A DNA stretch of 64,000 bases, taken from positions 1 to 64,000 of the forward strand of contig NW_027437442.1 of the NCBI RefSeq assembly GCF_964204645.1, written 5' to 3'. This stretch comes from Tubulanus polymorphus. Its lineage: Eukaryota; Animalia; Nemertea. The position numbers and the translations under genes were made by a program. Under the pieces are notes generated by a model, which was given only the letters and a program-made list of their open reading frames with translations, was not told the origin of the DNA and ran no database searches. Of this stretch, positions 2,533 to 63,726 are shown one piece after another; positions within the stretch are counted from its first letter, which is position 1, and every line of letters starts with the position of its first letter.

Positions 2533-2735
2533 TATCAGGAAGACATAAATAACTAACATATAACGAATTCCATTCAACGTATATACAAGGTTTATTAGAG
2601 TAATTTCATGCACTTCCGCCCTGCTTGCGAGAGCTCTAGTACACACACATCCAACGCCCTCTACAACACCACCGCGCATGTCACGCGGGAAAATAATAAT
2701 ACAATATAATCCGTGGCGGGAAAATATTCCCGACA
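2533..2735 (-). repeat. 3' LTR of the BEL element
   Basis: Near-identical to 5801-6003; terminal CA mutated to TA on the minus strand. Confidence 0.95.
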
Positions 2736-5700
2736 CAAAGTGTCTGTATCAATAACTTAGCTCTCAATGTGATCGGCGATACAAGCCCAAGAGGATCGAA
2801 CAATTTAGAAGCGTCTCTCAAGATAATACGTTTGGTGACGTTACTCGAACGCTGGAAAGACACCTCATGAAAACTGATTTCATCTGTAGACGAATCCCAC
2901 TTCAAACCAACTACTGAGGTTAAACCCGGTTTCTCTGCAACTCCTTCAGAATTTGCAAGTGACATAACTTCCCGTGAGTTACTCGACCAAGCCCTTACGT
3001 TGAAACCACCACGACATAGTAACTCTCTACAACCGTGATAAAAGTCGACTGCAGATGCGTCATCAATAAAAGACGATATGATATTGTCTACATAGATATT
3101 TTGTCTAATTGCGTCAGATATCTCATTAGGGTTCTGAATTAAATGTTTCAAAATCGTAGCATTGAGCAAAAAAGGCGAACAAGTCGCACCAAACAAAACT
3201 GATCGGAATCGAAAAATTCTGAGTTCACTATCAAGGTCATGAGGATCCTGAAACCATAAAAATCGTGTATAATCACAGTCGTCCTCGTGAAGTTCTATCA
3301 TCAAAAAAGCCTTCTCAATGTCCGATACGGCAACAAATTTGTGTTGTCTGAATCTTAACAAAATAGACGATAAATCATTGTGAAGTCTCGGGCCAACCTC
3401 CAAACAGTCATTTAAACTAACTGCGTCTCTACTAGCTTTACATGAACAATCGAAAACTATTCTCAAAGAAGTAGTCGAAGAATCTCGATACACAGCATGA
3501 TGTGGAATATAATGACATGCAGTACGGTTTGTTGATGTGTCTATACCTCCTCAATGAAACCTCGGTTTAATTGATCTTCAATGATGGCAGAATAATTTGA
3601 AAGATGTCCGGTTTTAATTAATCGTTTCACTGTTGACTTAAGCCTGTGAAAACAAATAGCAAAATTATCAGATAAAGGTGGATGAGCAGGTTTCCATGGG
3701 AGCCGAGCTATGTATTTTTTTCGATCAGCGTCATAAGTCAAAAGGTTCTCGCAATAATCATAAACTGTCAAGGTTTCAGGTGAGTCATCGGGATGCTGTC
3801 TGCCTAGGGATTCAAGAGTCCAAAAATCATGGTACTTGGTTGCCTCAGTGTCATCTAGCGTTGTCAACGTACTGAGAAATGAAGAAATGCTAGTTTGAGA
3901 AAAATCCGCTACAGGGCCACTAACAAAATACCCAACCTTGGACTCTAACGCAATAGGACCATAGCTATTATCCGGGCGGATCTGATTCTCCATAACAAAA
4001 TCGTAATAAAAATCACAACCTATCAATAAATCAATTGAAAATGTCTCATCATCAATAGGATGAGCTAAGATTAAACCTTGTAGATAATTGTAATCTTTAA
4101 GTACGGTTCTATCACCAAGACTAATAGGTTGTGCTATTTGTGGCACCACTAAAGCTTCAATGTTTATTATGGATTGATCGGTACACTAGACCTTTAAACT
4201 GACGACGTCCAGAGAACGGATTTGTGGATTTGAATTGACACCACCAAAACCAGTAATATTTATCTGATCAGCTCGAATGGGTTTCAAGCCTAACAAATTA
4301 ACCAAAGATCTATTGACAAACGTCCTCTGAAAACCGTCGTCAAATAAAGCGCCAATTTCAGTTGAATAATCTTTGCTTAAAACATGAATAACAGCCGTTT
4401 TTAACAGAACACAATTATTAAAACGCTGCGAACATTGAGTATGCATTTGAGTTGATCTGTCAACCTTCGGCGTTGAATAGACATTATTTCGTTGAGGACC
4501 AACTTTATGTAGAGAACTATTCTGGCCTTTATGATTCTGGCTACGCGCCGGTGAACCCAGTTGCAAATTTTGAGTACTTGTATGTTTATGATAGTTCGAG
4601 CCTACCGAATTAGAATTATTAGAAACACAAATACTGCTATGATGCTTTTTCCTACAAAATTTGCACCTAGTTTCTGATTTACAGTTAAGGGATATATGTC
4701 CTGTACGTAAACAGTTGAAACAAAGACGATTTTCTCGTATAAATTTCACCTTGGCTTCTACATCATATTTAATACAATTTATAGATGAGGGTTTCTCTCC
4801 ACAATATACACAATTTCGAGAAGAAAACGGATATTTATCCACCTGCCCTGATGCAATAAACACAGAGGCTTCGAAATCAGGCTTAACAGCAGTTTTGTTA
4901 CATAATTCTAGTATATCCAATTCATTCTTTAAGCATATCAATAAATTTGGGAATGACCAAATAGTCGAATTCCGACCCCGGGTCATATTTTGTACTAATG
5001 TGACTGGCAACCGTTCAAGCAAGACCGGAATCAATAATTCACCATAACTGTCTGGAGTTTTTCCAAGACCTTCGAGCGATCGGACATATAAAATAAGCTT
5101 ATCGTAGAATGCTCTAATGCTAGCTGCGGTATTAGATGGCTCGGTTAACTCTAATAGAGCTTTCATATAGGCTGATATTAAGCGCGAAGTTTCCCCAAAT
5201 CGTGACTTCAGTAGATCAACGGCAATTGTGTAGTTATCGGCGGAGGTCGATATACCGGCAATACAAGAATAAGCTTCACCGGACAAACATGAACGCAAAT
5301 ATGTGAATTTATTCATTGTCGGAATATCGGTTCTATGAACACCTGTTTCGAAGCTATCCCAAAAACTGCTCCACTCCAAAACATTACCAGAAAATTTCGG
5401 AATTTGTAAAACTGGTAGTTTAATTGGCAAAGTTCTGGGATTTGATGGACTGAACGAGGGCTGTAAACTTTCAACTTTTCCATTTGTATACTGCAAATTC
5501 GCGTTTAGTTTCAGCGACGGAACGTGCATAGTCGTCGTGTGTCATGAATTCTTTCTCAATTTCATCATCTCCGGCGAGGAGTGATACAATTTCGTAGTGG
5601 CACGATGTTAATTCTGACAATTTTTCGTCGACATGTTTTGAATGATCTATGAGTGCCTGGTTATCGGTCGTGCAGGCAGATATCAAAGCGTTAATGTCAT

Positions 5701-24788: not shown

Positions 24789-27286
24789 TCAATAGTTCTC
24801 GAACGTTGTTTTTTTAAATCTAGCAACTAGGGATCCAATGCTTGGAGCTTTACAAAGATGATCAATTGAATTTTGCCAAAGTATAGGAACTTTGGCTAAA
24901 AAGGATTCGTGGAAAATTTTAGTTGTATGAAAGTTAACTGCAGCTTTATTTCTGTTTCTAGTGTTGTAGTAATGAAATTGAGAATTAGTGTTGAACTGAT
25001 TATAAATAAGTAATGGAAGTTTTTTGTGATAATGTAGGAAACCAAATTTTAACAATTCTAACTTAATAAGATCTTGCATTTTTAGAATTTTGAATCTTTT
25101 GAATAACGGCCCAGTAGGGGAATTATATGGAGCATTAGCGATTAATCGTACTGCTTTTTTCTGTATTAAGAATATATCCTTTACTTGTTTTGCAGATAAG
25201 AGTGGGCCCCAAACTATTAAAGCATAATTTAAATGACTGTGTATATATGAGTAATAAATCATTTTTTTTCAGTGAACTTTTTTAACGCTCTTAAGCAAAA
25301 ATACACTCCTATTCATTTTATTTATTAGTTGTGTGACATGTAAATCACAGTGCAGGTTTGTATCAATGTTAAGTCCTAAAAATTTGCAATCTGTTGAAAG
25401 TTTCAGTTTATTGTTAGCAATCTGTATAACTACATTATCTATATCAACCTGGTGTCTTCGAGGCTTGAATAATAAACATTTGGTTTTTTTCTAAATTGGG
25501 CGTCAACTGGTTGGCATGAAACCAAGTCACAAGAAGTTTTAAGTCACTTGCAGCACTTTCTAAGAGTCGAGTTATATTTTGGTCAAACGTAAGTAGATTA
25601 GTGTCATCAGCAAACGATATAGCTTTGGAGTGTTTAAGATTGAGACTTAGGTCATTAACATAGACAAGAAAAAGTAACGGTCCAAGGACCGAACCTTGAG
25701 GTACACCATATTTAATTTCTTTGAAGTTAGAGTTGGTATTATTATAATTAACATACATTTTACGGTTACTAAGGTAGCTACTTAACCAGTTATATGCATG
25801 TCCTTTTATGCCATAGTGGTTTAATTTATACAAAAGGGTATTAATATTTAACGAATCGAAGGCCTTAGATAAATCAAGACATATACCTAAGGAGTATTTC
25901 TTTTTTTCTATATTAGTTATTAAATTGCCAACAAAGTCTCCGATTGCATAGGTGGTGTTATGATTTGGTCTAAAACCATACTGACTAAGATTCAGAATTG
26001 TATGTGTACATAAGAAATTATAGAGTCGTTTGTGTATAAGTTTTTCTAAGATCTTAGAAAGAACTGGTAATAATGATATGGGGCGGTAATTATTTAAGAT
26101 TTGCTTGTTGCCGGATTTATGAAGCGGTATAACCTTAGCAATTTTCATTTTTTCAGGAAAAATGCCTTCACTAAGCGATTTGTTACAAAGTATGGTAAGG
26201 GGTTTAATTATAGATGGAGCAATTAGTTTCAACAATTTATTATTAAGAATGTCCGGACCTGTACTTCGTTTTGGTGATAGGCTATTAATAACTTTAAATA
26301 TTTCTTCACTGTTTGTTGGGTTAATGAACATCACGCTTTCATTTTTCTTCGGCAAAAGGTCCTTAAATGTTTTGTTTGATACAGGGATTTGTTCAGCATA
26401 TCGTTTACCTATTTATGAAAAAAAAGTTATTAAATTCGTGACATATTTCGAAGTTATCCTTGGTTGCTTTACCATTTAAAATTAAGTTTGTTGTAATAGA
26501 TGTCTTATCATTTGTCTTACCAATCAGATTTTTAATTAGTTTCCAAATTTTCCGGCTATTTGTTCCAATCGATTCAATTTTCTGTTTGTAGTAATTTATC
26601 TTTTGTCTTCTCCTTATATAATCTAGTTGATTTCTATATGTTATGTAGGTTTTATAGCGTTGATCAGATCGGTCTAGGTTCATAACCTTTTTAAACAGCT
26701 TATTACATTTCATTGATGCTTTTAAAAGTAAATCAGTCATCCAAGGTTCCGTGATTTTAGTTTTCCTTTTGACCTTTTTTTCAGGAGAGATTTGATTAAT
26801 TACATCTGATATTTTAGAACTCATTGCATTATAATAATTATTAGTGTCGAAATTATCTAGTGAGGACCAATCTATATTTGAGAGGTGATTGTTAATTAAG
26901 TTTATATTTTCAGTATTGACGTTGCGTGTAGTATATTCATTTGTAATTCTACCTTTGAATTTAGTAGATACAAAACACGGCAAATGATCAGATATGTCTG
27001 ATATTAAAATGGCACTCGTATGAGTTGAATGCAATTTAGGTGATAAGTATATGTTGTCAATAAGGGTGGCAGTGGACTGTATAATCCGCGTTGGACGCAA
27101 CATAGTTGGACATAAATTGTTAGATAAATTAATATCTAAAAATTTAGAGGTATTCTTATGAATATTAACCTTTATGAAATCTAAGTTTTTATCCATTCCT
27201 AAAACTACCTCACATTTTTCCTGCTCAATTTTACTCACTAGTTCTTCATATTTTTGTAGGAATAATTTTTCATCACTATTAGGCAC
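24789..27286 (-). pseudogene. LINE ORF2 (partial APE endonuclease plus reverse transcriptase), frameshifted
   Basis: PTRI...TLIDNIY, ISDHLP (APE C-terminal half); NYRPISLLPVLSKILEK, QYGFR, LDLSKAFD, GVPQGSVLGPLLFLVYVND, FADDT. Split into three ORFs; N-terminal APE half absent. Confidence 0.93.
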
Positions 27287-27584
27287 TAGTAGCCGTAGGC
27301 AATAGTAGCCGTAGCTGTACTACTAACTGGAAGATCTAATTAACTAATTAATCATTTTAGCATGGATGGTACTATATTGATAGGTGACACAAGAGTTATG
27401 CCATAAAAGGATACAAAAAAATCGTGTAGGATTACAGAAGGTCATAAGACTATTGAGGACAGATACAAAAGAGTACATGGCGATCCTTGAGAAATCAGAT
27501 TACTGTAGTGTCAATACACAATGATGTCTAAATTAATGTTCTAAGTAAAGTCAAAAAGGTCTACTCTAGTTTTCTTGCCGTCTT

Positions 27585-28433
27585 TTACTCCAATAACATT
27601 TCCATGCGATACGAGTCATAAAGTCCACTTTTAGAAGCATCTATACGTAATTTTGAAATTTCTGCTGCGAGATCCTCTTGAATTACAAATCCGGTGCCTT
27701 TAAGGCTTTTCCTGTAAGACAGGACTCTATCACGGACTGATCTATCTTTAAACCTCACTATAATTCCTGGTGTTTTGTTAGAGGTCGTGTTCTGTCGAAG
27801 TCGATGCGCCACTTCAATGTTACCTATGGTTACTTTCTCACTTTTCGGTTTCTTTAGAATTTTAATCACCTTGTCCATCACAATCTCAGCGCAGTTCTCA
27901 TCTTGTGTGACACTAGGTAGCGACGGTCCGTAGAAACGCAGATTATTACGTCGAGAGTACTGATTGTTTGCGACTGTTGCTCGTTTCAAATCCTTGATAC
28001 ATCCTTTTAGTTCCAGATTCTCCTTTTCTAACGATTTACATCTTTCATCATAACCGTTGATCTTTTCATCATAACTATTAATGGTATCTTTCATGACATT
28101 AATCTCGTTTTTTAAAGCTTGAACCTCTCCTCCTAACATCTGTTTAAAGTCATCTAATAATTCCTTTTTGAATTTGTCCATGTAAAATTCAAGGAAGTCC
28201 CGTGTAAGATCTCCGGACTGGCTAGATGTTGATGATCCAACACGAGGTCTTTTGGGGTTTCGCGAGTTATCAGTCGTTGACACACTTGGTAATGGAGTTA
28301 GGGCATAAGAAAACACGTCTGCATTATCTGAATTATCCGAAATAGGGTTAGGATTGTTACAATCGGGCATTGCCACTTCGTGATTTTCACTTTCTGGCAT
28401 TTTGAAGTCCTGAATACTCATTAGTATATTCAC
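27585..28433 (-). CDS. LINE ORF1 (coiled coil plus RRM-like domain)
   Basis: Coiled coil followed by NQYSRRNNLRFYG, IEVAHRL, PGIIVRF, VIQEDL, typical of L2/CR1 ORF1; lies upstream of ORF2. Confidence 0.85.
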   Translation of the reverse strand: MNILMSIQDFKMPESENHEVAMPDCNNPNPISDNSDNADVFSYALTPLPSVSTTDNSRNPKRPRVGSSTSSQSGDLTRDFLEFYMDKFKKELLDDFKQMLGGEVQALKNEINVMKDTINSYDEKINGYDERCKSLEKENLELKGCIKDLKRATVANNQYSRRNNLRFYGPSLPSVTQDENCAEIVMDKVIKILKKPKSEKVTIGNIEVAHRLRQNTTSNKTPGIIVRFKDRSVRDRVLSYRKSLKGTGFVIQEDLAAEISKLRIDASKSGLYDSYRMEMLLE

Positions 28434-28975
28434 TCTGAGTATACACTCCGATTATGGTTCACTGGTCACAATCACAATCCTTAACGTTGGTACTTCCTAC
28501 CACATAATTCACATATAGTTCACATAGCCTATAAGTGGTTGACCTTGAACTTAATCCATGAAGAAATTTACACAGATTGAGTTTTTTAACCGTAGCAAAT
28601 AGTCACCTTTGAAATGATTTTCTAAGACATCATCAGATCTTCATAGTCTTTGAATACTCATAAGACAATTAGTCCACAGTATACATGAAGACAGCCACTT
28701 ATAACACCAAAAATCCTTACTTTAATCACTTTAATATTAAGTATTTGAAACGTATAGCCTGACCTCTAGAATACGCAAACAAGTCAAACATGGTACTCAA
28801 GTAAATCCCATAGCGCGTCTGAATGGTGGCTAATTCTCCCTTCAATTGAAAATAGGTTTCGGCATAAAATAACTTGTAAGTTGTTTTAGTTGTTCTCTCG
28901 ACCTTTCAGGTTGAGCTAAAGGCAAAGCGTAGGGACGTTGCGATTTCCCTAAAACATTGTATAAATTGTACCTAC

Positions 28976-41243: not shown

Positions 41244-41356
41244 TAATGCACTTATTGAACATTTTAATTCTTCTACGATGAACTGGTGCCTAATGACGTC
41301 CAACGTCCCCAGAACCAACAACACACCAAGATCCAAAGACTCCATCTCGAACGCCT

Positions 41357-44300
41357 ATGCCCCAGTCATCCCTTCCTCTGACACGTCCAATGAAAACAAC
41401 TCCTACGCCAATACCACAGACTTCAGTTCGACCAACGTCTCGAGTGCCATCGACTCATCAAGATCCTTCACGTCGGATTACATCAATTCTAGATCCACCA
41501 TCTACCACGATAGCACCAAAAACGGATCCAACACCTCCAACACCACAGACTTCCCTTCCTCCAACATCGCCAACAACTACAGTGCCATCAACTCATCAAG
41601 ATCCTTCACGTCCGATTACAAAAATTCCGGATGTACCGTCTCTCACGATAGCACCAACAACAGCGCTAACACCTCCAACATCACAGACTTCTGTTCCTTT
41701 AACATCACCAACAACTCCAGTGCCATCGACTCACCAAGATCCTTCACGTCCAATTACAAAAATTCCAGATGTACCATCTTTCATAATGGCATCAACAACC
41801 GCTTCGGCACCTCCAACACCAAAGGCTTCTGTTCCGCCAGCGTCACCAACAACTCCAGTGCAATCGATTCATCAAGATCCGTCACGTCCAATCACTACAA
41901 TTCCAGATATACCATCCTTCCCGATAGCACCAACAACGGCTCCAACATCTCCAAAACCACAGACTTCTGTTCTGCCAGCATCACCAACAACTCCAGTGCT
42001 ATCGACTCAACAAGATCCTTCACGTCCAATTAGAACAATTCCAGATATACCATCCTTCACGATAGCATCACCAACAACTCCAGTGCAATCGATTCATCAA
42101 GATCCGTCACATCCAATCACAACAATGCCAGATATACCATCTTACACGATAGCACCAACAACAGCTCCAACACCACAGACTTCTGTTCCTCTAACATTAC
42201 CAACAACTCCAGTGCTATCGACTCACCAAGATCCTTCACGTCCAATTACAACAATTCCAGATGTACCATCTTTCACACTGGCATCAACAACCGCTTCACC
42301 ACCTCCAACACCACAAGCTTCTGTTCCGCCAGCATCACCAACAACTCCAGTGCAATCGATTCATCAAGATCCGTCACGTCCAATCACAACAATTCCAGAT
42401 ATACTATCCTACACGATAGCATCAACAACAGCTCCAATACCACAGACTTCTGTTCCTCTAACATTACCAACAACTCCAGTGCTATCCACTTACCAAGATC
42501 CTTCACGTCCAATTATAACAATTCCAGATTTGCCATCCGGCACGAAAGCACCAACAACAGCTCCAACAACTCAGACTTCTGTTAATCCAACATCATCAAC
42601 AACGCCATCGACTCACCGTGATCCTTCGCTTCCGATAACAACAATTCCAGATATATCATCCTTCACGATAGCACCAACAACGGCTCCAACATCTCCAAAA
42701 CCACAGACTTCTGTTCTGCCAGCATCAACAACAACTCCAGTGCTATCGACTCATCAAGATCCTTCACGTCCAATTACAACAATTCCACATATACCATCCT
42801 TGACGATAGCACCAACAACGGCTCCAACGCCTCCAAAACCACACACTTCTGTTCTGCCAGCATCAACAACAACTCCAGTGCTATCGACTCATCAAGATCC
42901 TTCACGTCCAATTACAACAATTCCAGATATACCATCCTTCACGATAGCACCAACAACAGCTCCAACACCACAGACTACTGTTCCTCTAACATTACCAACA
43001 ACTCCAGTGCCATCGACTCATCAAGATCCGTCACGTCCAATCACAACAATTCCAGATATACTATCCTACACGAAAGCAGCAAAAACGGCTCCAACACCTC
43101 CAACATTACAGACTTCTGTTCCTCCAACATCACCAACAACTCCAGTGCCATCGACTCACCAAGATCCTTCACGTCCGATTACAAAAATTCCAGATGTACC
43201 ATCCTTCACGATAGCACCATCAACCGCTTCAACACCTCCAAAACCACAGACTTCTGTTCCTCCAACATCACCAACGACTCCAGTGCCATCGACTCATCAA
43301 GATCCTTTACGTCCAATTACAACAATTCCAGATAAACCATCCTTCACGATAGCACCGACAACAGCTCCAACGTCACAGACATCTGTTCCTTTAACATCAC
43401 CAACAACTTCAGTGCCATCGACTCATCAAGATCCTTCACGTCCGATTACAACAATTCCAAATATGCCATCCTTCACGAAAGCACCAACAACAGCACCAAC
43501 ACCACAGACTTCTGTTCCTCCAACATCACCAACAACTCCAGTGCCAGCGACTCACCAAGATCCTTCACGTCCGATTACAACAATTTCAGATATACCATCC
43601 TTCACGATAGCACCATCAACCGCTTCAACACCTCCAAAACCACAGACTTCTGTTCCTCCAACATCACCAACGACTCCAGTGCCATCGACTCATCAAGATC
43701 TATCACGTCCGATTACAACAATTCCCGAATTACCATCCTTTACAATAACACCAACAACAGCTCCAACACCTCCAACATCACAGACCTCTGTTCCTCGAAC
43801 ATCTCCAACAACTCCAGTGTCATCGATTCATCAAGATCCGCCACGTCCAATCACAGCAATTCCAGATATACCATCCTACACGATAGCACCAACAACAGCT
43901 CTAACACCACAGACTTCTGATCCTCTAACATTACCAACAACTCCAGTGCCATCGACTCATCAAGATCCTTCACGTCCGATTACAAAAATTCGAGATTTAC
44001 CATCCTTCACGATAGCACCAACAACAGCTCCAACACTTCCAACATCACAGACTTCTGTTAATCCAACATCACCAACAACTCCAGTGCTATCGACTCACCA
44101 AGATCCTTCACGTCCGATTACAACAATTCCAGATTTGCCATCCGAAACGAAAGCACCAACAACAGCTCAAACAACTCAGACTTCTGTTAATCCAACATCA
44201 CAAGCGACTCCAGTGCCATCGACTCATCAGGATCCTTTACGTCCAATTACAAAAAATCCAGAAAAACCATCCTTCACGATAGCACCGACAACAGCTCCAA

Positions 44301-44773
44301 CGTCACAGACATCTGTTCCTCCAACATCACCAACAACTTCAGTGCCATCGACTCATCAAGATCCTTCACGTCCAATAACAACAATTCCAGATATACCATC
44401 CTTCACGATAGCACCAACAACTGCTCCAAAACCACAGACTTCAGTCCCTCTAACATTATCAACAACTCCAGTGCCATCGACTCATCAAGATCTATCACGT
44501 CCGATTGCATCAATTCCAGATTTACCATCCTTTACGATAGCACCAACAACAGCTCCAACACCACAGACCTCTGTTCCTCCAACATCTTCAACAACTCCAG
44601 TGCCATCGACCCTTCAAGAGCCCTCACGTCTTTACGTCGATTACAACGATTCCAGATGTACCAATATTTACGATAGCACCAACAACGACTCCAACATCTC
44701 CGACTTATGTTCCTGTGGCGTTTACTCGTCACGATTTAAAAGCACTGATCCAACGACTGATCCAACTTTTTAA
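41357..44773 (+). CDS. Mucin-like PTS tandem-repeat protein or giant exon (about 24 repeats of 44-47 aa)
   Basis: 1138-codon ORF of TTPVPSTHQDPSRPITTIPDIPSFTIAPTTAPTP(PTS)QTSVPPTSP units (132/141 bp); downstream donor G|GTAAG at ~44860 is out of frame with the ORF. Confidence 0.75.
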   Translation: MPQSSLPLTRPMKTTPTPIPQTSVRPTSRVPSTHQDPSRRITSILDPPSTTIAPKTDPTPPTPQTSLPPTSPTTTVPSTHQDPSRPITKIPDVPSLTIAPTTALTPPTSQTSVPLTSPTTPVPSTHQDPSRPITKIPDVPSFIMASTTASAPPTPKASVPPASPTTPVQSIHQDPSRPITTIPDIPSFPIAPTTAPTSPKPQTSVLPASPTTPVLSTQQDPSRPIRTIPDIPSFTIASPTTPVQSIHQDPSHPITTMPDIPSYTIAPTTAPTPQTSVPLTLPTTPVLSTHQDPSRPITTIPDVPSFTLASTTASPPPTPQASVPPASPTTPVQSIHQDPSRPITTIPDILSYTIASTTAPIPQTSVPLTLPTTPVLSTYQDPSRPIITIPDLPSGTKAPTTAPTTQTSVNPTSSTTPSTHRDPSLPITTIPDISSFTIAPTTAPTSPKPQTSVLPASTTTPVLSTHQDPSRPITTIPHIPSLTIAPTTAPTPPKPHTSVLPASTTTPVLSTHQDPSRPITTIPDIPSFTIAPTTAPTPQTTVPLTLPTTPVPSTHQDPSRPITTIPDILSYTKAAKTAPTPPTLQTSVPPTSPTTPVPSTHQDPSRPITKIPDVPSFTIAPSTASTPPKPQTSVPPTSPTTPVPSTHQDPLRPITTIPDKPSFTIAPTTAPTSQTSVPLTSPTTSVPSTHQDPSRPITTIPNMPSFTKAPTTAPTPQTSVPPTSPTTPVPATHQDPSRPITTISDIPSFTIAPSTASTPPKPQTSVPPTSPTTPVPSTHQDLSRPITTIPELPSFTITPTTAPTPPTSQTSVPRTSPTTPVSSIHQDPPRPITAIPDIPSYTIAPTTALTPQTSDPLTLPTTPVPSTHQDPSRPITKIRDLPSFTIAPTTAPTLPTSQTSVNPTSPTTPVLSTHQDPSRPITTIPDLPSETKAPTTAQTTQTSVNPTSQATPVPSTHQDPLRPITKNPEKPSFTIAPTTAPTSQTSVPPTSPTTSVPSTHQDPSRPITTIPDIPSFTIAPTTAPKPQTSVPLTLSTTPVPSTHQDLSRPIASIPDLPSFTIAPTTAPTPQTSVPPTSSTTPVPSTLQEPSRLYVDYNDSRCTNIYDSTNNDSNISDLCSCGVYSSRFKSTDPTTDPTF

Positions 44774-51586: not shown

Positions 51587-52078
51587 GTTTTCACAAGCCG
51601 ACAATCGACAATCGGCAATCAGAAACCTGATAGTCGACCAATTGCTGTGATCATGAGGGTGAAACAGATTTTTTGGTTGCGAGAGTGATATAGATTTTGT
51701 GATTGTTTAGGGTGAAGGAGATGCTGTAATTGTGAGGGTTTAATAGATGGTACGATTGTGAGGGTGCTATAGCTGTTGTAATTGTGAGGGTGAAATCGAT
51801 GCTGTGATTTTGAGGGTGATTTAGATGCTGTGATAGTGAGGGAGATATAAATGCTGTGATTGTGAGGGTGAAATAGATGCTGTGATTGTGAGGGTATATA
51901 GATGATGCAATTGTGACATATATGCTGTGATTGTGAGGGTGATATTAATGCTGAGCTTGTAAGGTTGATGTAGATGATGTAGGTGATTGTGTGGACAATC
52001 TGGTTTACGATTGCCGATTGTCAACTCAGGGACTCGTCGACTATCAAGTTCTTGATTGCTGATTGTCGACGTGAGAAC
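51587..52078. mobile_element. TIR element with TA flanks carrying an internal ~23-bp minisatellite
   Basis: Left GTTTTCAC...GACAATC.GCAATCA..A.C.TGATAGTCGAC is inverse to right GTCGACTATCA...TGATTGC.GATTGTC...GTGAGAAC; interior is (GATGCTGTGATTGTGAGGGTGAAATA)n at 51640-51990. Confidence 0.75.
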
Positions 52079-52484
52079 TAGGTATCAGCTAGAACGCCAA
52101 CATCCATGGTATATGCTAAAATTGGTAAACTCCCTATGCAATACGATATTCAAAATAGAGTCCTCAAATAACGGTTTAAGATGATAACAGATGTGTCCTG
52201 TAAAATTTCTACTTTTTGGATAAACTCCTGAGTAATTGGAAAAGTGGGCTTTCAGATCAGCGTACGAGAGTACGACACACCACTCATCACCACAAGTAAT
52301 TTTTTCCCATAATAAATGGGAGATAGAAAAGCATTCTTAGTAACAATAAATAACAGAATAAAACCAGCAAAAAAACAATTTTAAATAAAAAAGTTAGTCG
52401 ATGTTACAAAAGAAATTGAACATAAAATATTAAAATTAGAAAAGATAAAAGCTAAATATGGAGATAGAATATCAGCAAATTTAT

Positions 52485-53836
52485 GTTACTGTAATCTAAG
52501 TACAACGAGAGAATTCAAAGTATTTTTACCTGATAAATGGGTTGCATTGAGTACAGAGGAATTAAAAGATTTAGAAGGATTTAAAATAATCTATGATGGA
52601 AAAAATGAAGACGGGCATCATGATTTAGAAATTGTTGACTAAACAATTAAGAAATAAAATAATAAAAAAATAAAAATAATGTATATCAAAAATCCGAAAT
52701 GACTTGTCTGGACAATTTAATTGCTCCGTAGATAGACATAAGTAGTGGGATATTCAATTAATTAAAAATAAAAATTTTTTTTTTCTAAAATATTAATCCA
52801 TTTTTTATTGTGAATTTTAGAATTTCAGAAGTATTTTCATTTTAATAGCAGTAGTTTCAGAATTATTAATGTCATAAATTTTATTTGATTTCCTATACCA
52901 ACTACACCCAATCAAAATGAATACAACTACAAGTTACTGTAATCTAAGTACAACGAGAGAATTCAAAGTATTTTTACCTGATAAATGGGTTGCATTGAGT
53001 ACAGAGGAATTAAAAGATTTAGAAGGTAGAAGGATTTAAAATAATCTATCATGGAAAAAATGAAGACGGGCATCATGATTTAGAAATTGTTGACTAAACA
53101 ATTAAGAGATAAAATAATAAAAAAATAAAAATAATGTATATCAAAAATCCGAAATGACTTATCTGGACAATTTAATTGCTCCGTGGATAGACATAAGTAG
53201 TGGGATATTCAATTAATTAAAAATAAAATTGTTTTTTTTTCAAAAATATTTATCCATTTTTTTATTGTGAATTTTAGAATTTCAGAAGTATTTTCATTTT
53301 AATAGCAGTAGTTTCAGAATTATTAATGTCATAAATTTTATTTGATTTCCTATACCAACTACACCCAATCAAAATGAATACAACTACAAGTTACTGTAAT
53401 CTAAGTACAACGACAGAATTCAAAGTATTTTTACCTGATAAATGGGTTGCATTGAGTACAGAGGAATTAAAAGATTTAGAAGGATTTAAAATAATCTATC
53501 ATGGAAAAAATGAAGACGGGCATCATGATTTAGAAATTGTTGACTAAACAATTAAGAAATAAAATAATAAAAAAATAAAAATATTGTATATCAAAAATCC
53601 GAAATGACTTATCTGGACAATTTAATTGCTTCGTAGATAGACATAAGTAGTGGGATATTCAATTAATTAAAAATAAAATTTTTTTTTCTAAAATATTTAT
53701 CCATTTTTTTATTGTGAATTTTAGAATTTCAGAAGTATTTTCATTTTAATAGCAGTAGTTTCAGAATTATTAATGTCATAAATTTTATTTGATTTCCTAT
53801 ACCAACTACACCCAATCAAAATGAATACAACTACAA
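52485..53836. repeat. ~450-bp tandem triplication near the Polinton left end
   Basis: GTTACTGTAATCTAAGTACAACGA starts at 52485, 52933 and 53390; copies are nearly identical. Confidence 0.95.
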
Positions 53837-54560
53837 ATCCAATTGTAAAAAATATAAATATTTATCAAATATTCTATTATTAGAAGTAGTAGAAATAATA
53901 ATATTTTCACCATTTTTATTAACATTTTCATTATTTGTTTTTTCTTTAATAGCTTTTTTAAATTCTCTCGATTTAATTCATAATTGCCGAGACCATTCAA
54001 TTTGTTACCGAGTTCTCGGTTTTTCTTCACAGTTAATTCGTTCACTTCCTCCACCTCGTTCATTTATTATAGAAAAATTTTTACTTTCAATATTTGAAAA
54101 TGTTATTACTCCAGTTGATGATAATGTCACATATCCACCTAATTGAAATGATAAATATCCAATGCATTTATTCAATTCAGTCATACTAAATAATCGTTTT
54201 TTAAATCGGAATATAATCTATTTTCATCTTGAATTGGTAGCATATATTTAAATAATTTACTATAACCTTTTACTACATTTTCTGATATCGCATCATTAAT
54301 TCTAGCTATTCTCGCAGTTTCATAAATCTTAAATAATTTAATGATTTCATCTGATTTCATTGTATCTAATTCATTATAAGTTAAATTTTTACTAATAAAA
54401 CTTTTTACATTTCCCAGATGCTATTAATATTTCTAATTGATGTTGCAATAAAGATAATATTCATAATTATTGTTTGTAGTAATATTATTTAAAGCATTAT
54501 TATTATCTGGTGTTAATTTTGTTTCTGTTATACCAAAATCATCCAAAGTTTTTTCAATTG
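53806..54560 (-). pseudogene. Two small Polinton accessory ORFs, frameshifted
   Basis: LIASGKCKSFISKNLTYNELD...YETARIARINDAISENVVKGYSKL (about 54090-54560) and ORF 53806-54063 with a basic N-terminus and hydrophobic segment. Confidence 0.5.
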
Positions 54561-54766: not shown

Positions 54767-55715
54767 CTAGAATTCAACTAGACATCCAACCCATTTTACT
54801 AAAGAATATTTTTTTCTATTAACAGTTTTTGTTTTTAATACTTTTTCAATTTTATATTCTTGTTCTAGATTTTCAGTAGTTAAACTTAATTCTTCTTCAT
54901 AAAAATACCCATCAACTTCTTCACCATTTAAATCTTCTAATTTATAGACATGTGGTTTTGTTGTTATTACCTTTTTTATTTTATATATTTCTCGAGTAAA
55001 ATTACGATCGTATCCTGTGTCAAATATCTTTTTATACTTAGAAATTCTAACATTTTGACCAACTTTAAATTTAGGTTCACCAAAATTATCTACAAGAAAT
55101 ACCCCATATAAATTATTCCAAACAATTTCAGCATTTTCAGGTTTTCTAGCATCGATAGGTTTCATTCCAATAGAAGAACGATAAGAATTATTATAACCTT
55201 CTATCAATTTTGGTAAAACCTCGATCCATTTAAAAGTTCCATTTAATGTTCTATTAAATCGTTCAACAACTGCCGCTTTTTTATCCGATTTTGTTGAAAA
55301 ATATTCAATATTCTGATTATCTAAGAGTTCATGAACAGATGAATTATCAAATTCTTTTTCATCATCAAATTGTATTTTTTCTGGCTTTATTTTACCACCT
55401 GAAAGAAATTTTCTTAAAACATCTGATGTTTGTACAGCATCTTTTCTGTTAAGTGGGAAGCTCCATACATAACGACTAAAAAAATATCAATTACGTTTAA
55501 GATCCACCAATAATTTTCATTATCTTTCTTAACATTTTTCATATCAATTAAATCTCCTTGCCACTGTTGATCTACATAACTTACCATAGTTTTACGAGTT
55601 TTATATTTTCTAACAATCTTTTTATGTGTTGTATACGTTGGTTGTTCTAACATGAATTCATTTATATCTTTAAATTTAACTAAATTTTGTGGTATTATCT
55701 TATCTAATTTATCTT
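54767..55715 (-). pseudogene. Polinton retroviral-like (rve) integrase with C-terminal chromodomain, frameshifted
   Basis: QWQGDLIDM, WILNVIDIF, KIQFDDEKEF, KAAVVERFNRTL, YNNSYRSSIGMKP, PKFKVGQNVRISK, GYFYEEEL, YKIEKVLK...LVKWVG. Confidence 0.92.
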
Positions 55716-59159: not shown

Positions 59160-59895
59160 TAGTAAATTCATAAGCAACAAATAATACAATAACTGTTCCA
59201 CCTAAAATCCAAATTATTTCATATTTCTGTTGTTCACTACTTGGGGTATAATAATCTGATAATTTAGGTTCGTACAAATGAAATTTTTCTTTATTTGTTA
59301 CTGCGTTATAGAAACCATCCTCCCCCGGCAGGGATTCGAACCTGATGGCATCGAGATTGCCACGGCACGAAACCCTGCAATAATCGACCGTGTGCGCAGA
59401 TACATGCGCAGTTCAGATGATGTGATTTTTAGCCAATCAGAAATCCCGTTTTATTTTAGCCCGGGTTTTCCCATTTATAGTTCTTCCTTGAAATTTGCCT
59501 CAACGATTATACAACGAGCAATCTGATTGGTGCCGCCAGTTTTCGTTCGGAAAGCTGCGCATGTACCTGCGCACCCGGTCTACTGATGCAGGGGTTCGTG
59601 CCGTGGCTGAGTGTAGCGATGCCATCAGGTTCGAGTCCCTGCAGAGGGAGGATGTATAGAAACTCATTGCATCATCAACTGATTGAAAATCTCTATGTGA
59701 TATATTTTGGTTATATAATTCTTTATCAAAAGACAAAACTGTATGGATTTAGTTTTGTCTTTTTTCTCTATGTTCTTCTGCTGCTTTATTATATTTCTCT
59801 AACGCTAAGTTATGTCTTCTTTGTTCTGCTAATGAACTATTTTTATCAATATGTTTAAATAAATAATCACCACCTGTAAATGCTAAAGCGATTAC
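59160..59895 (-). pseudogene. Polinton small membrane protein, 5'-truncated and interrupted by a MITE
   Basis: VIALAFTGGDYLFKH...EQRRHNLALEKY...DFQSVDDAMSFY|NAVTNKEKFHLYEPKLSDYYTPSSEQQKYEIIWILGG; the frame continues across the MITE TSD. Confidence 0.6.
59316..59654. mobile_element. 339-bp MITE with ~100-bp TIRs and a 9-bp TSD (Mutator-like), nested in the Polinton
   Basis: CATCCTCCC...GGGAGGATG termini; TSD TATAGAAAC at 59307-59315 and 59655-59663; GC-rich island in AT-rich DNA. Confidence 0.92.
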
Positions 59896-59896
59896 A

Positions 59897-59935
59897 ATTA
59901 TATTTTAATAATATTTGGGTATCAGCTGTTACAGA
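59897..59935 (-). other. Intein N-terminal splicing block (block A) remnant at the PolB YxD|TDS site
   Basis: In-frame ILYFD|SVTADTQILLKYN where TDS is expected; the rest is removed by a deletion. Confidence 0.7.
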
Positions 59936-62460
59936 ATCAAAATATAATATTTTAATATGTCTTTCCCCAAAAAGTGGTTGTAAAACATTATAATAAAAAT
60001 AATACATTAATAATTTTGATATTTCTAAAACAGTTGAACCAATGAATATAGGTTTATTAAATTTCATTGACGTTCTTTTTAATTTTACCGCGGTTAAATA
60101 ATCTTCAAATGTTTTATTTCCTAAATGTCTAGGACTTGATTGTAAATGTCTTAATCGTTCAGAATTATTTACTAATTCAATATCATTTCTATTTCTAATA
60201 TTTTCACATGTTTTTCCATAAAAACTATTATTCATTAATTTGAAGAAATCTTTTTCAAAATCTGTTTTAGATATTGTTCTCCGTTGAGCATTGAAATCTA
60301 TATATTTTTCCAACCACTTCGATTGATTAAATTCAATATATCTATGTACTTTCTTTAATTTCATTCCTTGTTTTAGATAAAATTGTATCATTCTATAATG
60401 AACAATATAATTGTATTTATTATTTTGTGTTAGTATCAATTTTTCTGTAAAAACATGATCTTTCGGTTTTATTTTTTTCTGGTATTCACTGAAATAACTA
60501 TCATCTACGGCCCAATGTTCTGGGCAATATGGTAAGTTTCTTGTTTTAAACTTTATGTTATCAGGATATTCTAAATCAACTACAAAGAAATAACCAATTG
60601 GTGCTTCATCTTTCAAACCCATAATTGCACTTTCCCAATCAGTTTTATCATCATTTTCAACTTCTGTTAATATAAAATTTTTGTATGGTTGAGGTTGCAT
60701 CATTGCCCAACCATATAGATTATTTGCATCAATATACAATAATTTATATTCATCATTTGCTTTAAAATGTCTATCTCCCATAACACCACTAATTCCACCT
60801 CTAATTAATTTTTCAAATAATAAAACCATGTCTGGTTCTTTTAATAAATCCAATTCTACATGTGTATATTTTGAACCATATTCCCAGGTTAAACCAGGAC
60901 TTGAATAACAATAACAAGGATCAACATTAAAATGATTAAAATTAACTTCTCCAAATTTTTCAAATATGTCAGCCAATATCATAACATCTGATTTTAAGTA
61001 TAAATCTACTAATTCTCCATGTTTTTTTTTATCTGAAAGTGATTCTTTTTCTTGAATTCACTTTTTTAGCTTGTAAATTACAATCTTCATGAGCAGCTCC
61101 ACGATAACTTTCTCTAACTTTTTTATCAAATGAATGAAAACGTTTTTCACAGTAACAACAATGAGTTGCATAATTAAAATCAATTTCATCTTCTTTTGTC
61201 ATAACTATTCTTTTATTTTTGTTTAATAATTGCGCAAAATCACTTTCTAATTCTATGATTTTATTACAAAATTCATTTACAACATTTTCACCTCCAAAAG
61301 AAATATATTGACTTTCATATAATTCAAGATAATTTGATTTTATGTAAATGCCATAAGCAGCAGCTCTTTGATGAACATTCTTAATTGTATTTATAATTGG
61401 TGGGCCTTGAATTATATCTTCATTTAGTTCATTTCCTTTATCCATTGATTTTGAAAATTGCTTTTTGTTATATATTTCTTTTCTATCTTGATCAGTTAAT
61501 TCTTTATTCAACGATTCAAAATCCCCATGAATTATACAAATGGCACTATATTCTTAAATTTATGATTAGTAAATTTCAACTTACAATCTTTTTTGTTGGC
61601 ATTTTTAATTTACAAGAATCTTTATTATCACATAATTCTTTATGTTTTAGTAACGCATTCTCAGTCATAAATTTAGATAAACATTTTCTACATAGATAAA
61701 TTTTACGATGTTGATCACTTTCTGTTGTTCTTAAGAATAAATCTATTTGTTTTAACCACACATAATGTTCATTTTCATCTTTTTTGTAATATAACAAATC
61801 TATAACATTTTCATCATCATAATATTCTGTTAAATATAAAGCTTCCGATGTATAATCTTTAATATTTTCACCTTTTGTCTCTGGTAATTGCATTAACTCG
61901 AATACATTTATTTTTAAATTATTAACTTTTTCTATTTTAGGAATCATCTTTATAGTTAGTGGATATTGATAAATTTTATATAATGTTTCATATTTCCAGT
62001 AATCTGTTATTCTACAAACATTTTCCTGAGTTGGGTGTAAGCAACTTATAATTGACCATAGAAAGCATTTATTATCTTCATTTTGAACATTTATTACTGC
62101 TTTTGTTGTAAATGGTAATTTGATATAACTTGATGCTTTAATATCCTTTTCTGTTGTAAAGTTGGAATTATTTGTAAACATCGTATTACTTTTTGATGCT
62201 TTATTCCTTTTTGTATTATAAATATTTAAATCTAAAAATATAATTTCATTCTATGTTAAACCAGAACCCTCAAAATATCTTTCTTCAATATGACGTTTAA
62301 ATTCATTAAACATTTTTTCTAATTTCTCTTTTATTTGTGTTTTTGAAATTATTTCTTCAGAGTGTGTTTGAATATTATAATCCATTTTAACTTCTGATTT
62401 GATAAAACTTACTTTTCCAGAAATACTAATTTTTGGATATTCAACATCTGTTACCAAATC
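59936..62460 (-). pseudogene. pPolB: Protein-primed family B DNA polymerase of the Polinton, fragmented
   Basis: N-terminal SYIKLP...AVINVQNEDNKCFLWSI; nuclease-like CCYC...YRGAAHEDCNL; YLKSDVMILADIFE, IRGGIS, YIDANNLYGWAM, KLMNNSFYGKT, KPIFIGSTVLEISKLLMY, ILYFD. Exonuclease core and C-terminus are missing. Confidence 0.95.
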
Positions 62461-62827
62461 TTATATTTTTTCCATGATTTCAATAAATTTACTATAATCA
62501 TCTATTGTTGCTCCTTTAAAAAATCTAAATATAATAGCAGCAGGTCCAATTTTACTGCGTAATGTTTCCAGAATTTCAATTGTATCTTTTATTTCTAGTG
62601 AATCGATATAATTTCTAACATTTTCCATATAAGGTTTATTTGAAAAAGACTTAGTTTTTGAAACTGGTTTTTTACTTGCTGAGTTTTATCATCAAAATAA
62701 TCTGTTCCTAAAATATTATTACTTAAATTTTGTTTGTGTATTTGTGATTCGAGATGTCATTTATAATTCCGTTTTGCTATAAATTCATTACAAACTTCAC
62801 ATTTTATCTCATCCACATTCATATTTT

Positions 62828-63010
62828 CTAACCTTCTTTTCTTTCATTGGAATTTTCTGGAGTTTCAAAATCTATAATATTTTTTATATGATTTGCAGTT
62901 TTTTCATATTTAGATTTATAAGATTTATCGATGTATTTTTTATAATAAGTGCAATAATATTGATTTTTATTAACACCATTGTTTTCTGTCTGGTACTCAC
63001 TATCTCCCAT
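62828..63010 (-). CDS. First Polinton ORF fragment, with a degenerate C2H2-like finger
   Basis: ATG lies inside the TIR; YYCTYYKKYIDKSYKSKYEKTANHIKN; a second finger-like piece (CEVCNEF) near 62790. Confidence 0.4.
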   Translation of the reverse strand: MGDSEYQTENNGVNKNQYYCTYYKKYIDKSYKSKYEKTANHIKNIIDFETPENSNERKEG

Positions 63011-63726
63011 TTATTAGGATAAAAAATTACTTGTGGTGATGAGTGGTGTGTCGTACTCTCGTACTCTGATCTGAAAGCCCACTTTTCCAATTACTCTCCT
63101 GTATTCTCTCCTCTCGCGGGGAATCTACGGTGCAATTTGGATAGTAACAGTCGAAAACATGTTGGGCAGATTGGGCTAATAACAATCTAAGTAGTGAATT
63201 TTTCAAGCATTCGATTAAGCTTAGAATATGGCTGATCATTTTACGCAAGATATAATGGGTAATGTTAAAACTCATGATTATTGCATGAATTATCGTATTT
63301 CTTTAGATAGTTTTGGCTTTGCGCAGTATTTATCTGATTTGCCTGACTACATGAGACCTAAGCTAACCAAGTGTCGATTGGGTTCATTTAACATCCCGGT
63401 GTTCCGTTTGAGATTTTAACGACTTTCCAGAAGTTATAAGTGTAAAATGAGCGATGAGTTTCGTGTTCTCCTGAAATGAGATCATTATTCTAATTTGCAC
63501 CAGAAACATATACCACCAAAGTTTAATTGGCGGCGGCCAAACGTTATCAAGTTCAGGGCATTGCTTAGTAAAATTAATTTCCAGAAAAATTATCCTTAAT
63601 TTCGAAGTTAATTTTGTAGGCTAGCATTGATGCAGAACTATCTCATTTATCCACGCTAGCGAAAATATTTATGAATAATTCCTCTTTTTTTCTGTAACGA
63701 AAGTATGGAAAACAGTTAAATTGAAT

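Follow-up and report, generated by a model that had tools for sequence, protein, structure and literature searches.

The closest described counterparts of the sequence reported here are the Pol-c inteins of Mimivirus R322 and other Nucleocytoviricota family B DNA polymerases (PolB), which, according to the available text of PMC549080, occupy the same motif-C site, begin with Ser, end with Asn, use Thr as the +1 residue and contain a LAGLIDADG domain; splicing of the Mimivirus Ser/Asn/Thr intein is likewise a prediction in that text. The initial annotation of the present DNA had ascribed to such inteins the Pol-c site, a Ser start and a Thr at +1, all in agreement with the accessible part of that paper, as is the Asn end. 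These giant-virus inteins reside in RNA-primed PolB, whereas those considered here (polinton inteins) reside in the protein-primed polymerase (pPolB) of an integrating element; the two groups share 40–49% identity, and the residues preceding the insertion are YGD in the giant-virus type and varied in the polinton inteins (YFD, YMD, FTD, YLD, SSD, ASD). Moreover, the copy described here lies in an animal chromosome, unlike giant-virus PolB inteins. The intein of Chilo iridescent virus, whose host gene is ribonucleotide reductase, is of the Gln type and belongs to a large iridovirus that is not host-integrated, unlike the present one. As cited in the available text of PMC549080, it is likewise found in an animal-infecting virus.

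Nuclear scaffolds of Klebsormidium, Tetrabaena and a labyrinthulomycete carry, as this locus does, an intein in an endogenous viral-like polymerase (PMC10710043), the hosts in the accessible portion of that report being algae and a protist as opposed to an animal; the words ‘Polinton’, ‘Maverick’, ‘metazoa’ and ‘animal’ do not occur in its main text as available. Insertions of HNH and VSR nucleases in Polinton pPolB (10.1101/2023.08.22.554363; PMC11071308), as far as these sources were accessible, likewise place a nuclease domain within pPolB, and one sentence in the available part of PMC11071308 suggests that they stem from intein invasions, while neither ‘intein’ nor ‘LAGLIDADG’ occurs in the accessible main text of 10.1101/2023.08.22.554363. 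The insert of the pPolB inteins carries Hint splicing blocks and interrupts a catalytic motif, unlike the HNH/VSR insertions as described. In the literature searched, which includes the available parts of PMC12220804, PMC13768754 and PMC3671162, neither a Polinton pPolB nor the nuclear genome of any animal is reported to contain a Hint intein; supplements might list such cases, and automatic database annotations may already flag the domains. The word ‘intein’ is also absent from the accessible text of 10.64898/2026.10.13.758929 and PMC13215967. According to two reviews, in the parts available, metazoan genomes lack inteins (PMC5784728, PMC8529194), and the initial annotation called them essentially unknown in metazoan nuclear genes; proposals to use intein inhibitors as antimicrobials lean on this absence. 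Described below is an intein allele already known, now in a protein family and a host kingdom that are new for it. Protein-primed polymerases and Polintons thereby join the known intein hosts, and an intein sequence is placed in an animal chromosome, though in a viral element and not in a host gene.

In the window, i.e. the whole 64-kb stretch of DNA that was analysed, a decayed Polinton of 10.9 kb, bounded by terminal inverted repeats (TIRs), sits among host genes, and its features are as follows.

52225..52230, plus strand: left target-site duplication, CTCCTG, 6 bp
52231..52326, plus strand: left TIR, starting with AG, part of a 97-nt inverted repeat, 96% complementary to the right TIR
54770..55713, minus strand: retroviral-type integrase, broken into two frames (Pfam rve, E 0.0012, under the cut-off)
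59752..59898, minus strand: downstream element ORF (IVIALAFTGG...), start missing, in another frame and beginning at the junction
59897..59899: deletion junction, a 3-base overlap common to both sides, with read departures at 59897 and 59899
59897..59935, minus strand: intein remnant, block A, SVTADTQILLKY(N), 12–13 codons, corresponding to SVTADTQILLKYN
59936..59959, minus strand: first half of motif C, HIKILYFD, with the Pol-c insertion site after the D (codon 59938-59936)
59936..62983, minus strand: pPolB region, to which the full-length relative P0144 aligns as 6 pieces
60209-60241, minus strand: motif B, KLMNNSFYGKT, in the pPolB frame
60701-60736, minus strand: motif A, YIDANNLYGWAM, in the pPolB frame
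63000..63095, minus strand: right TIR, ending with CT, inverted-repeat partner of 52231-52326
63096..63101, plus strand: right target-site duplication, CTCCTG, 6 bp, identical to the left one

The pPolB frame (59867-61057, minus strand) runs, as had been noted initially, normally through motifs A and B to HIKILYFD, at which point the YFD|TDS of the closest relatives is replaced by YFD|SVTADTQILLKY in the window. The block that had been noticed in the place of TDS (SVTADTQILLKYN, 59935-59897) was scored against a block-A profile of 164 distinct intein N-terminal 12-mers derived from 206 proteins, none of them with a pPolB host. At 28.0 bits the remnant ranks first among the 127,930 six-frame 12-mers of the window, the runner-up scoring 5.5, and none of 3,000,000 random 12-mers reached this value; with one pPolB-hosted 12-mer added to the profile the remnant scores 28.1 bits. 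It stands at the low end of true inteins, as 14 of the 164 intein starts score below it, and its residue 7 is Q, a position held by P in 178 of 187 inteins. Nine of its 12 residues are identical to the start of the intein in the relative P0007. The remnant is an in-frame insertion at D|TDS of a family B motif C, as defines a Pol-c class 1 intein, and it starts with Ser, block A requiring Ser or Cys. The surviving 12–13 codons, reported as 13 in the initial annotation (the 13th falls in the 3-base overlap at 59897-59899), are almost certainly the start of an intein. Blocks B, F and G and the +1 nucleophile are deleted from the window copy, which is thus a remnant and no working intein; no further intein piece in the window received a positive HMM score, and the best tblastn hit for such pieces (E 0.001) was a single match on the integrase region. 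Neither Pfam nor NCBIfam gave a match on the window pPolB ORF, and its relatives P0007 and P0015 match Pfam DNA_pol_B_2.

Employing the last 148 residues of the window polymerase as query against longer proteins only, 161 matches were obtained, of which 120 were listed. Four among those listed (P0007, P0014, P0015 and P0080) carry SVT-x-DTP after the motif-C Asp, and the four closest (P0001-P0004, 70–85% identical) read YFD|TDS. When cluster members were added, motif B was present in 144 of 154 sequences, and these comprise 13 filled, 110 empty (by pattern) and 21 other cases (TDA variants, truncated or unparsed). The P0007 intein as query gave 1,302 matches, and the 120 listed contributed P0166, P0170 and P0171, most of the other listed matches being RNA-primed PolB. 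Complete inteins at the same D are present in P0007, P0015 (and six cluster members), P0080 (and two), P0166, P0170 and P0171; the filled relatives P0007, P0015, P0080, P0166 and P0170 are known from their protein sequences. The contigs that carry P0015 and the cluster members examined alongside it range from 57 kb to 1.0 Mb. A further protein, P0327 (found among the 150 listed of 2,058 matches), is the C-half of an intein joined to a C-extein that is 61/80 identical to that of P0001, the closest empty relative of the window polymerase, and is thus another filled member of the window’s close family; it is filled, yet has a TDA flank as in some empties. None of the inteins in a scan of 37 viral loci had a pPolB-like extein, and in a polymerase scan of 8 viral and 12 metagenome loci motif C was empty by pattern in 12 of 20 and filled in none; no locus with an intact intein-bearing Polinton emerged from these collections. 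In a separate observation, P0164, a topoisomerase-II-like protein, contains three inteins that are relatives of PolB inteins.

The complete polinton inteins measure 337–354 aa, and all six full-length inteins inspected contain blocks A, B (T-x-x-H), C, E, F and G, a terminal Asn, a +1 Thr and a pair of intact LAGLIDADG motifs, each with its DG (blocks C and E). The Hint motifs that the initial annotation expected of undeleted copies are present in these relatives (T-x-x-H, LAGLIDADG and N|TDS ends), with the exception that the penultimate residue is His in only four of the six, being Ser in P0007 and Lys in P0166. Pfam identifies Intein_splicing and LAGLIDADG_3 in the relatives, P0015 being the only one among the intein matches to pass the curated cut-off. 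The AlphaFold model of the P0007 intein has a pLDDT of 93.1 with a 56-row alignment (40.0 for a single-sequence fold), and its best PDB match is the TliVMA intein (E 4e-19, TM 0.65), followed by PI-PkoII, PI-PfuI and PI-SceI among the top matches; phmmer also matches this intein to PI-PkoII (E 1.3e-7), and its best named viral structure matches are phycodnavirus and pandoravirus PolB. On the basis of this model, the intact relatives are confidently predicted to adopt a Hint fold with an inserted LAGLIDADG domain.

The remnant is very probably the start of a Pol-c LAGLIDADG intein in an animal-integrated Polinton, the complete relatives of which are predicted to be self-splicing and likely homing. 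A more conservative account of such an intein, namely that it is real but has been passed down vertically together with the polymerase, with repeated losses and no present role for homing, was weighed against the trees. The N-extein tree was built with 52 of 118 rows, i.e. seven filled (near-copies removed) and the 45 of 88 empties closest to the filled ones; the filled state changes six times, each change being required by starred branches, and its clustering does not exceed that of shuffled labels (108 of 500 shuffles were as low). Counts of changes cannot separate gain from loss and to that extent suit vertical inheritance. The intein tree comprised 10 polinton-labelled rows (P0363 labelled by similarity alone, P0014 and P0327 partial) together with the closest 45 from a non-redundant set of 136 others, archaeal inteins being left out. 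Nine of the 10 polinton-labelled inteins form one clade (100/100) among PolB inteins, and those of P0327 and P0007 group together, both exteins lying in the broad clade around the window, as vertical inheritance would also predict. The P0080 intein stands apart from the nine-member clade; none of the 200 bootstrap trees (0%) recovers a single origin of all 10, yet the AU test does not reject it (p 0.43). Against descent with the polymerase, P0166 is a pPolB whose extein has no BLAST similarity to that of the window and whose intein nevertheless lies inside the clade, so that the intein crossed between distant pPolB groups. The comparison inteins sit at YGD|TDS in 177 of 179 cases, and many of the 37 viral intein loci are named as giant-virus MAGs; the closest relatives of the polinton inteins sit in giant-virus-type PolB.

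Filled and empty alleles coexist at 98–99.7% extein identity, which speaks against vertical inheritance, and their divergence is concentrated beside the insertion site. P0015 differs from all 10 empties of its family at seven of the 16 residues within 8 residues of the site, compared with 11–23 of ~434 elsewhere (p 4e-7 to 2e-5, the empties not being independent). In the same family, three empty-empty pairs differ at 5, 3 and 4 of 16 positions beside the site and three filled-filled pairs at 0/16. P0080 and P0135 differ at 3/16 beside the site and 0/434 elsewhere, and P0080 and P0141 at 3/16 and 19/379, respectively, a weak difference (p 0.052). In eight control pairs of empties from beyond the P0015 and P0080 clusters, 0–2 of 16 residues differ. 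This divergence of the empties beside the site is as would be expected under homing. With both LAGLIDADG motifs intact in six of six inteins as a further argument against it, vertical inheritance with repeated loss appears improbable as the whole explanation, and recent homing in the lineage is the probable one. The empties of the P0015/P0032 and P0080 clusters were also observed to carry unusual motifs C (YFD|TDA, YTD|CDS, YGD|TDA and LTD|TDST) in polymerases that are otherwise 95–99.7% identical, variants that possibly reflect escape from the homing endonuclease.

A polymerase cannot work without YxDTDS, and an insert that interrupts this catalytic motif must therefore be removed for polymerase function. 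By canonical intein chemistry, Ser1 would form an ester, Thr+1 of TDS would attack it and the terminal Asn would cyclise, such that splicing of the precursor would restore motif C. As the distribution of alleles suggests, the LAGLIDADG endonuclease may cut motif-C DNA that is still empty in Polinton copies elsewhere in the nucleus, whereupon the intein would be copied in during repair of the cut, persisting empties carrying altered target sites via escape, co-conversion or both. The tree suggests that the intein entered Polintons once or twice from giant-virus-type PolB genes, a jump that would probably have taken place in co-infected cells and that speaks for an exchange of genes between giant viruses and Polintons where both occupy one cell. 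Since homing directly from one polymerase to a very distant one is considered implausible in the available text of PMC549080, a rare illegitimate event likely accounts for the first jump. That animal genomes host a live homing intein from giant-virus PolB, which spreads among germline copies and drives escape mutations in motif C, the most conserved motif of the polymerase, is a tentative proposal that stands a little short of even; if it is true, metazoan nuclei would harbour both protein splicing and a natural arms race of the gene-drive type. Multi-copy families with filled and empty alleles render homing and target-site escape directly testable.

Polintons (Mavericks) are recognised by TIRs, AG...CT ends, a 6-bp duplication, a pPolB and an integrase, all of which the window element shares, but at 10.9 kb it is decayed. 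Its integrase is 36–43% identical to the integrases of related loci (E down to 6e-57), and the last P0144 piece on its pPolB is 83% identical. No capsid, packaging ATPase or protease was detected by Pfam on 17 ORFs of the window or by comparison with 206 ORFs of 20 related loci, the window copy being deleted and decayed. The element is flanked by a P450 exon, a GPCR-like ORF and a RING-TRAF ORF, and a window ORF matches a named protein of Tubulanus polymorphus, a ribbon worm, at 100% identity over 228 aa. The TIRs, the CTCCTG duplications, the integrase and pPolB, and the animal genes in the flanks together identify a decayed Polinton integrated in an animal chromosome; this copy is dead. The GC content of the element (24.9%, against 37.4% and 33.7% in the flanks), and the circumstance that the element-flank joins are known from the assembly alone, would suit an element foreign to the animal genome, be it through an assembly chimera or a co-sequenced protist virus. 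We consider this very unlikely, given that an identical 6-bp duplication lies outside both TIRs, that the window includes the above-mentioned Tubulanus gene, and that the element is decayed and has received a high-copy palindromic insert which sister copies lack.

That a deletion joins the integrated intein start to the next viral ORF, as initially proposed, agrees with the ORF in another frame that begins at 59898, for which there was no Pfam match and no match in 57 loci. Reads depart at 59897 on one side and at 59899 on the other, and the three bases common to both indicate microhomology at the junction. The lost segment would amount to at least ~1.4 kb, an estimate that adds 324–341 intein codons to the C-extein (155 aa in P0144).

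Sister copies were sought in two public read runs, X1 (26% of sampled words) and X2, a second run with the same coded species label, of which ~12% was read. Over 59840-60040, 1,630 X2 reads were placed, 1,514 of them <95% identical to the window. Among the departures listed, 130 X2 reads depart at 59936, the exact insertion point, 71 at 59932, 95 at 59897, beyond the remnant, and 664 at 59899, from the side of the downstream ORF; the departures at 59932 are probably of the same class as those at 59936, lengthened by chance matches. The X2 depth is 139–170 over the remnant (59903-59930) and 434–546 over 59938-60021, from which about one third of the copies carry the intein start. The sister copies thereby fall into two classes, both also present in X1 contigs: ~2/3 leave the window at or beside the insertion point and ~1/3 carry the remnant. 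Many of the remnant-carrying reads run on beyond it, and in this animal the intein is known from its start alone. The proposal that the parent family bears an intein stands in view of the filled relatives and these sister starts, with the amendment that the family is polymorphic and most copies look empty; empty sister alleles, the existence of which had been raised as an objection to the intein reading, do occur, and so do filled ones (the four of the 120 homologues listed).

The least credible alternative, largely refuted by these data, is that the 12–13 codons are a TDSYILK C-extein decayed after a small in-frame insertion, or else a chance deletion junction. It can draw on the 3 of 9–10 positions that match the P0001 C-extein when 2–3 residues are skipped. 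The frame is 25/30 identical to P0001 before the site, but beyond it no register gives more than 3/9 (p 0.015 if 73% identity is assumed), compared with 9/12 for the P0007 intein start. Also against this alternative are the ~1/3 of sister reads that share the 36 bases, the departure of others exactly at the site and the lack of a second copy of these 36 bases in the window, where the next best match is 24/36. An origin of the remnant by frameshift or small insertion was rejected on the same comparison of the two sides.

Several other repeats were observed in and around the Polinton. The palindromic insert, which is MITE-like, occupies 59316-59654 within the Polinton (arms 59316-59353/59617-59654 and 59359-59411/59555-59607) and has a read depth of ~6,000 compared with 300–1,000 nearby; 484 X2 reads skip it (joint 59306-59655) and represent sister copies without the insert. 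Just inside the left TIR, a short ORF is present in three tandem copies with a spacing of ~455 bp (52385-53930), for which no Pfam family was found at E <0.05. Immediately left of the Polinton, at 51605-52069, lie 26-bp tandem repeats with inverted-repeat borders, possibly another small non-autonomous element. Two further regions, 2681-5541 and 24789-28451, are presumably decayed retroelements, judging from their motifs a Pao/BEL-like LTR element and a LINE-like element. Finally, an open frame of 1,158 aa at 41297-44773, composed of 129/138-bp repeats, is Pro/Thr-rich and mucin-like.
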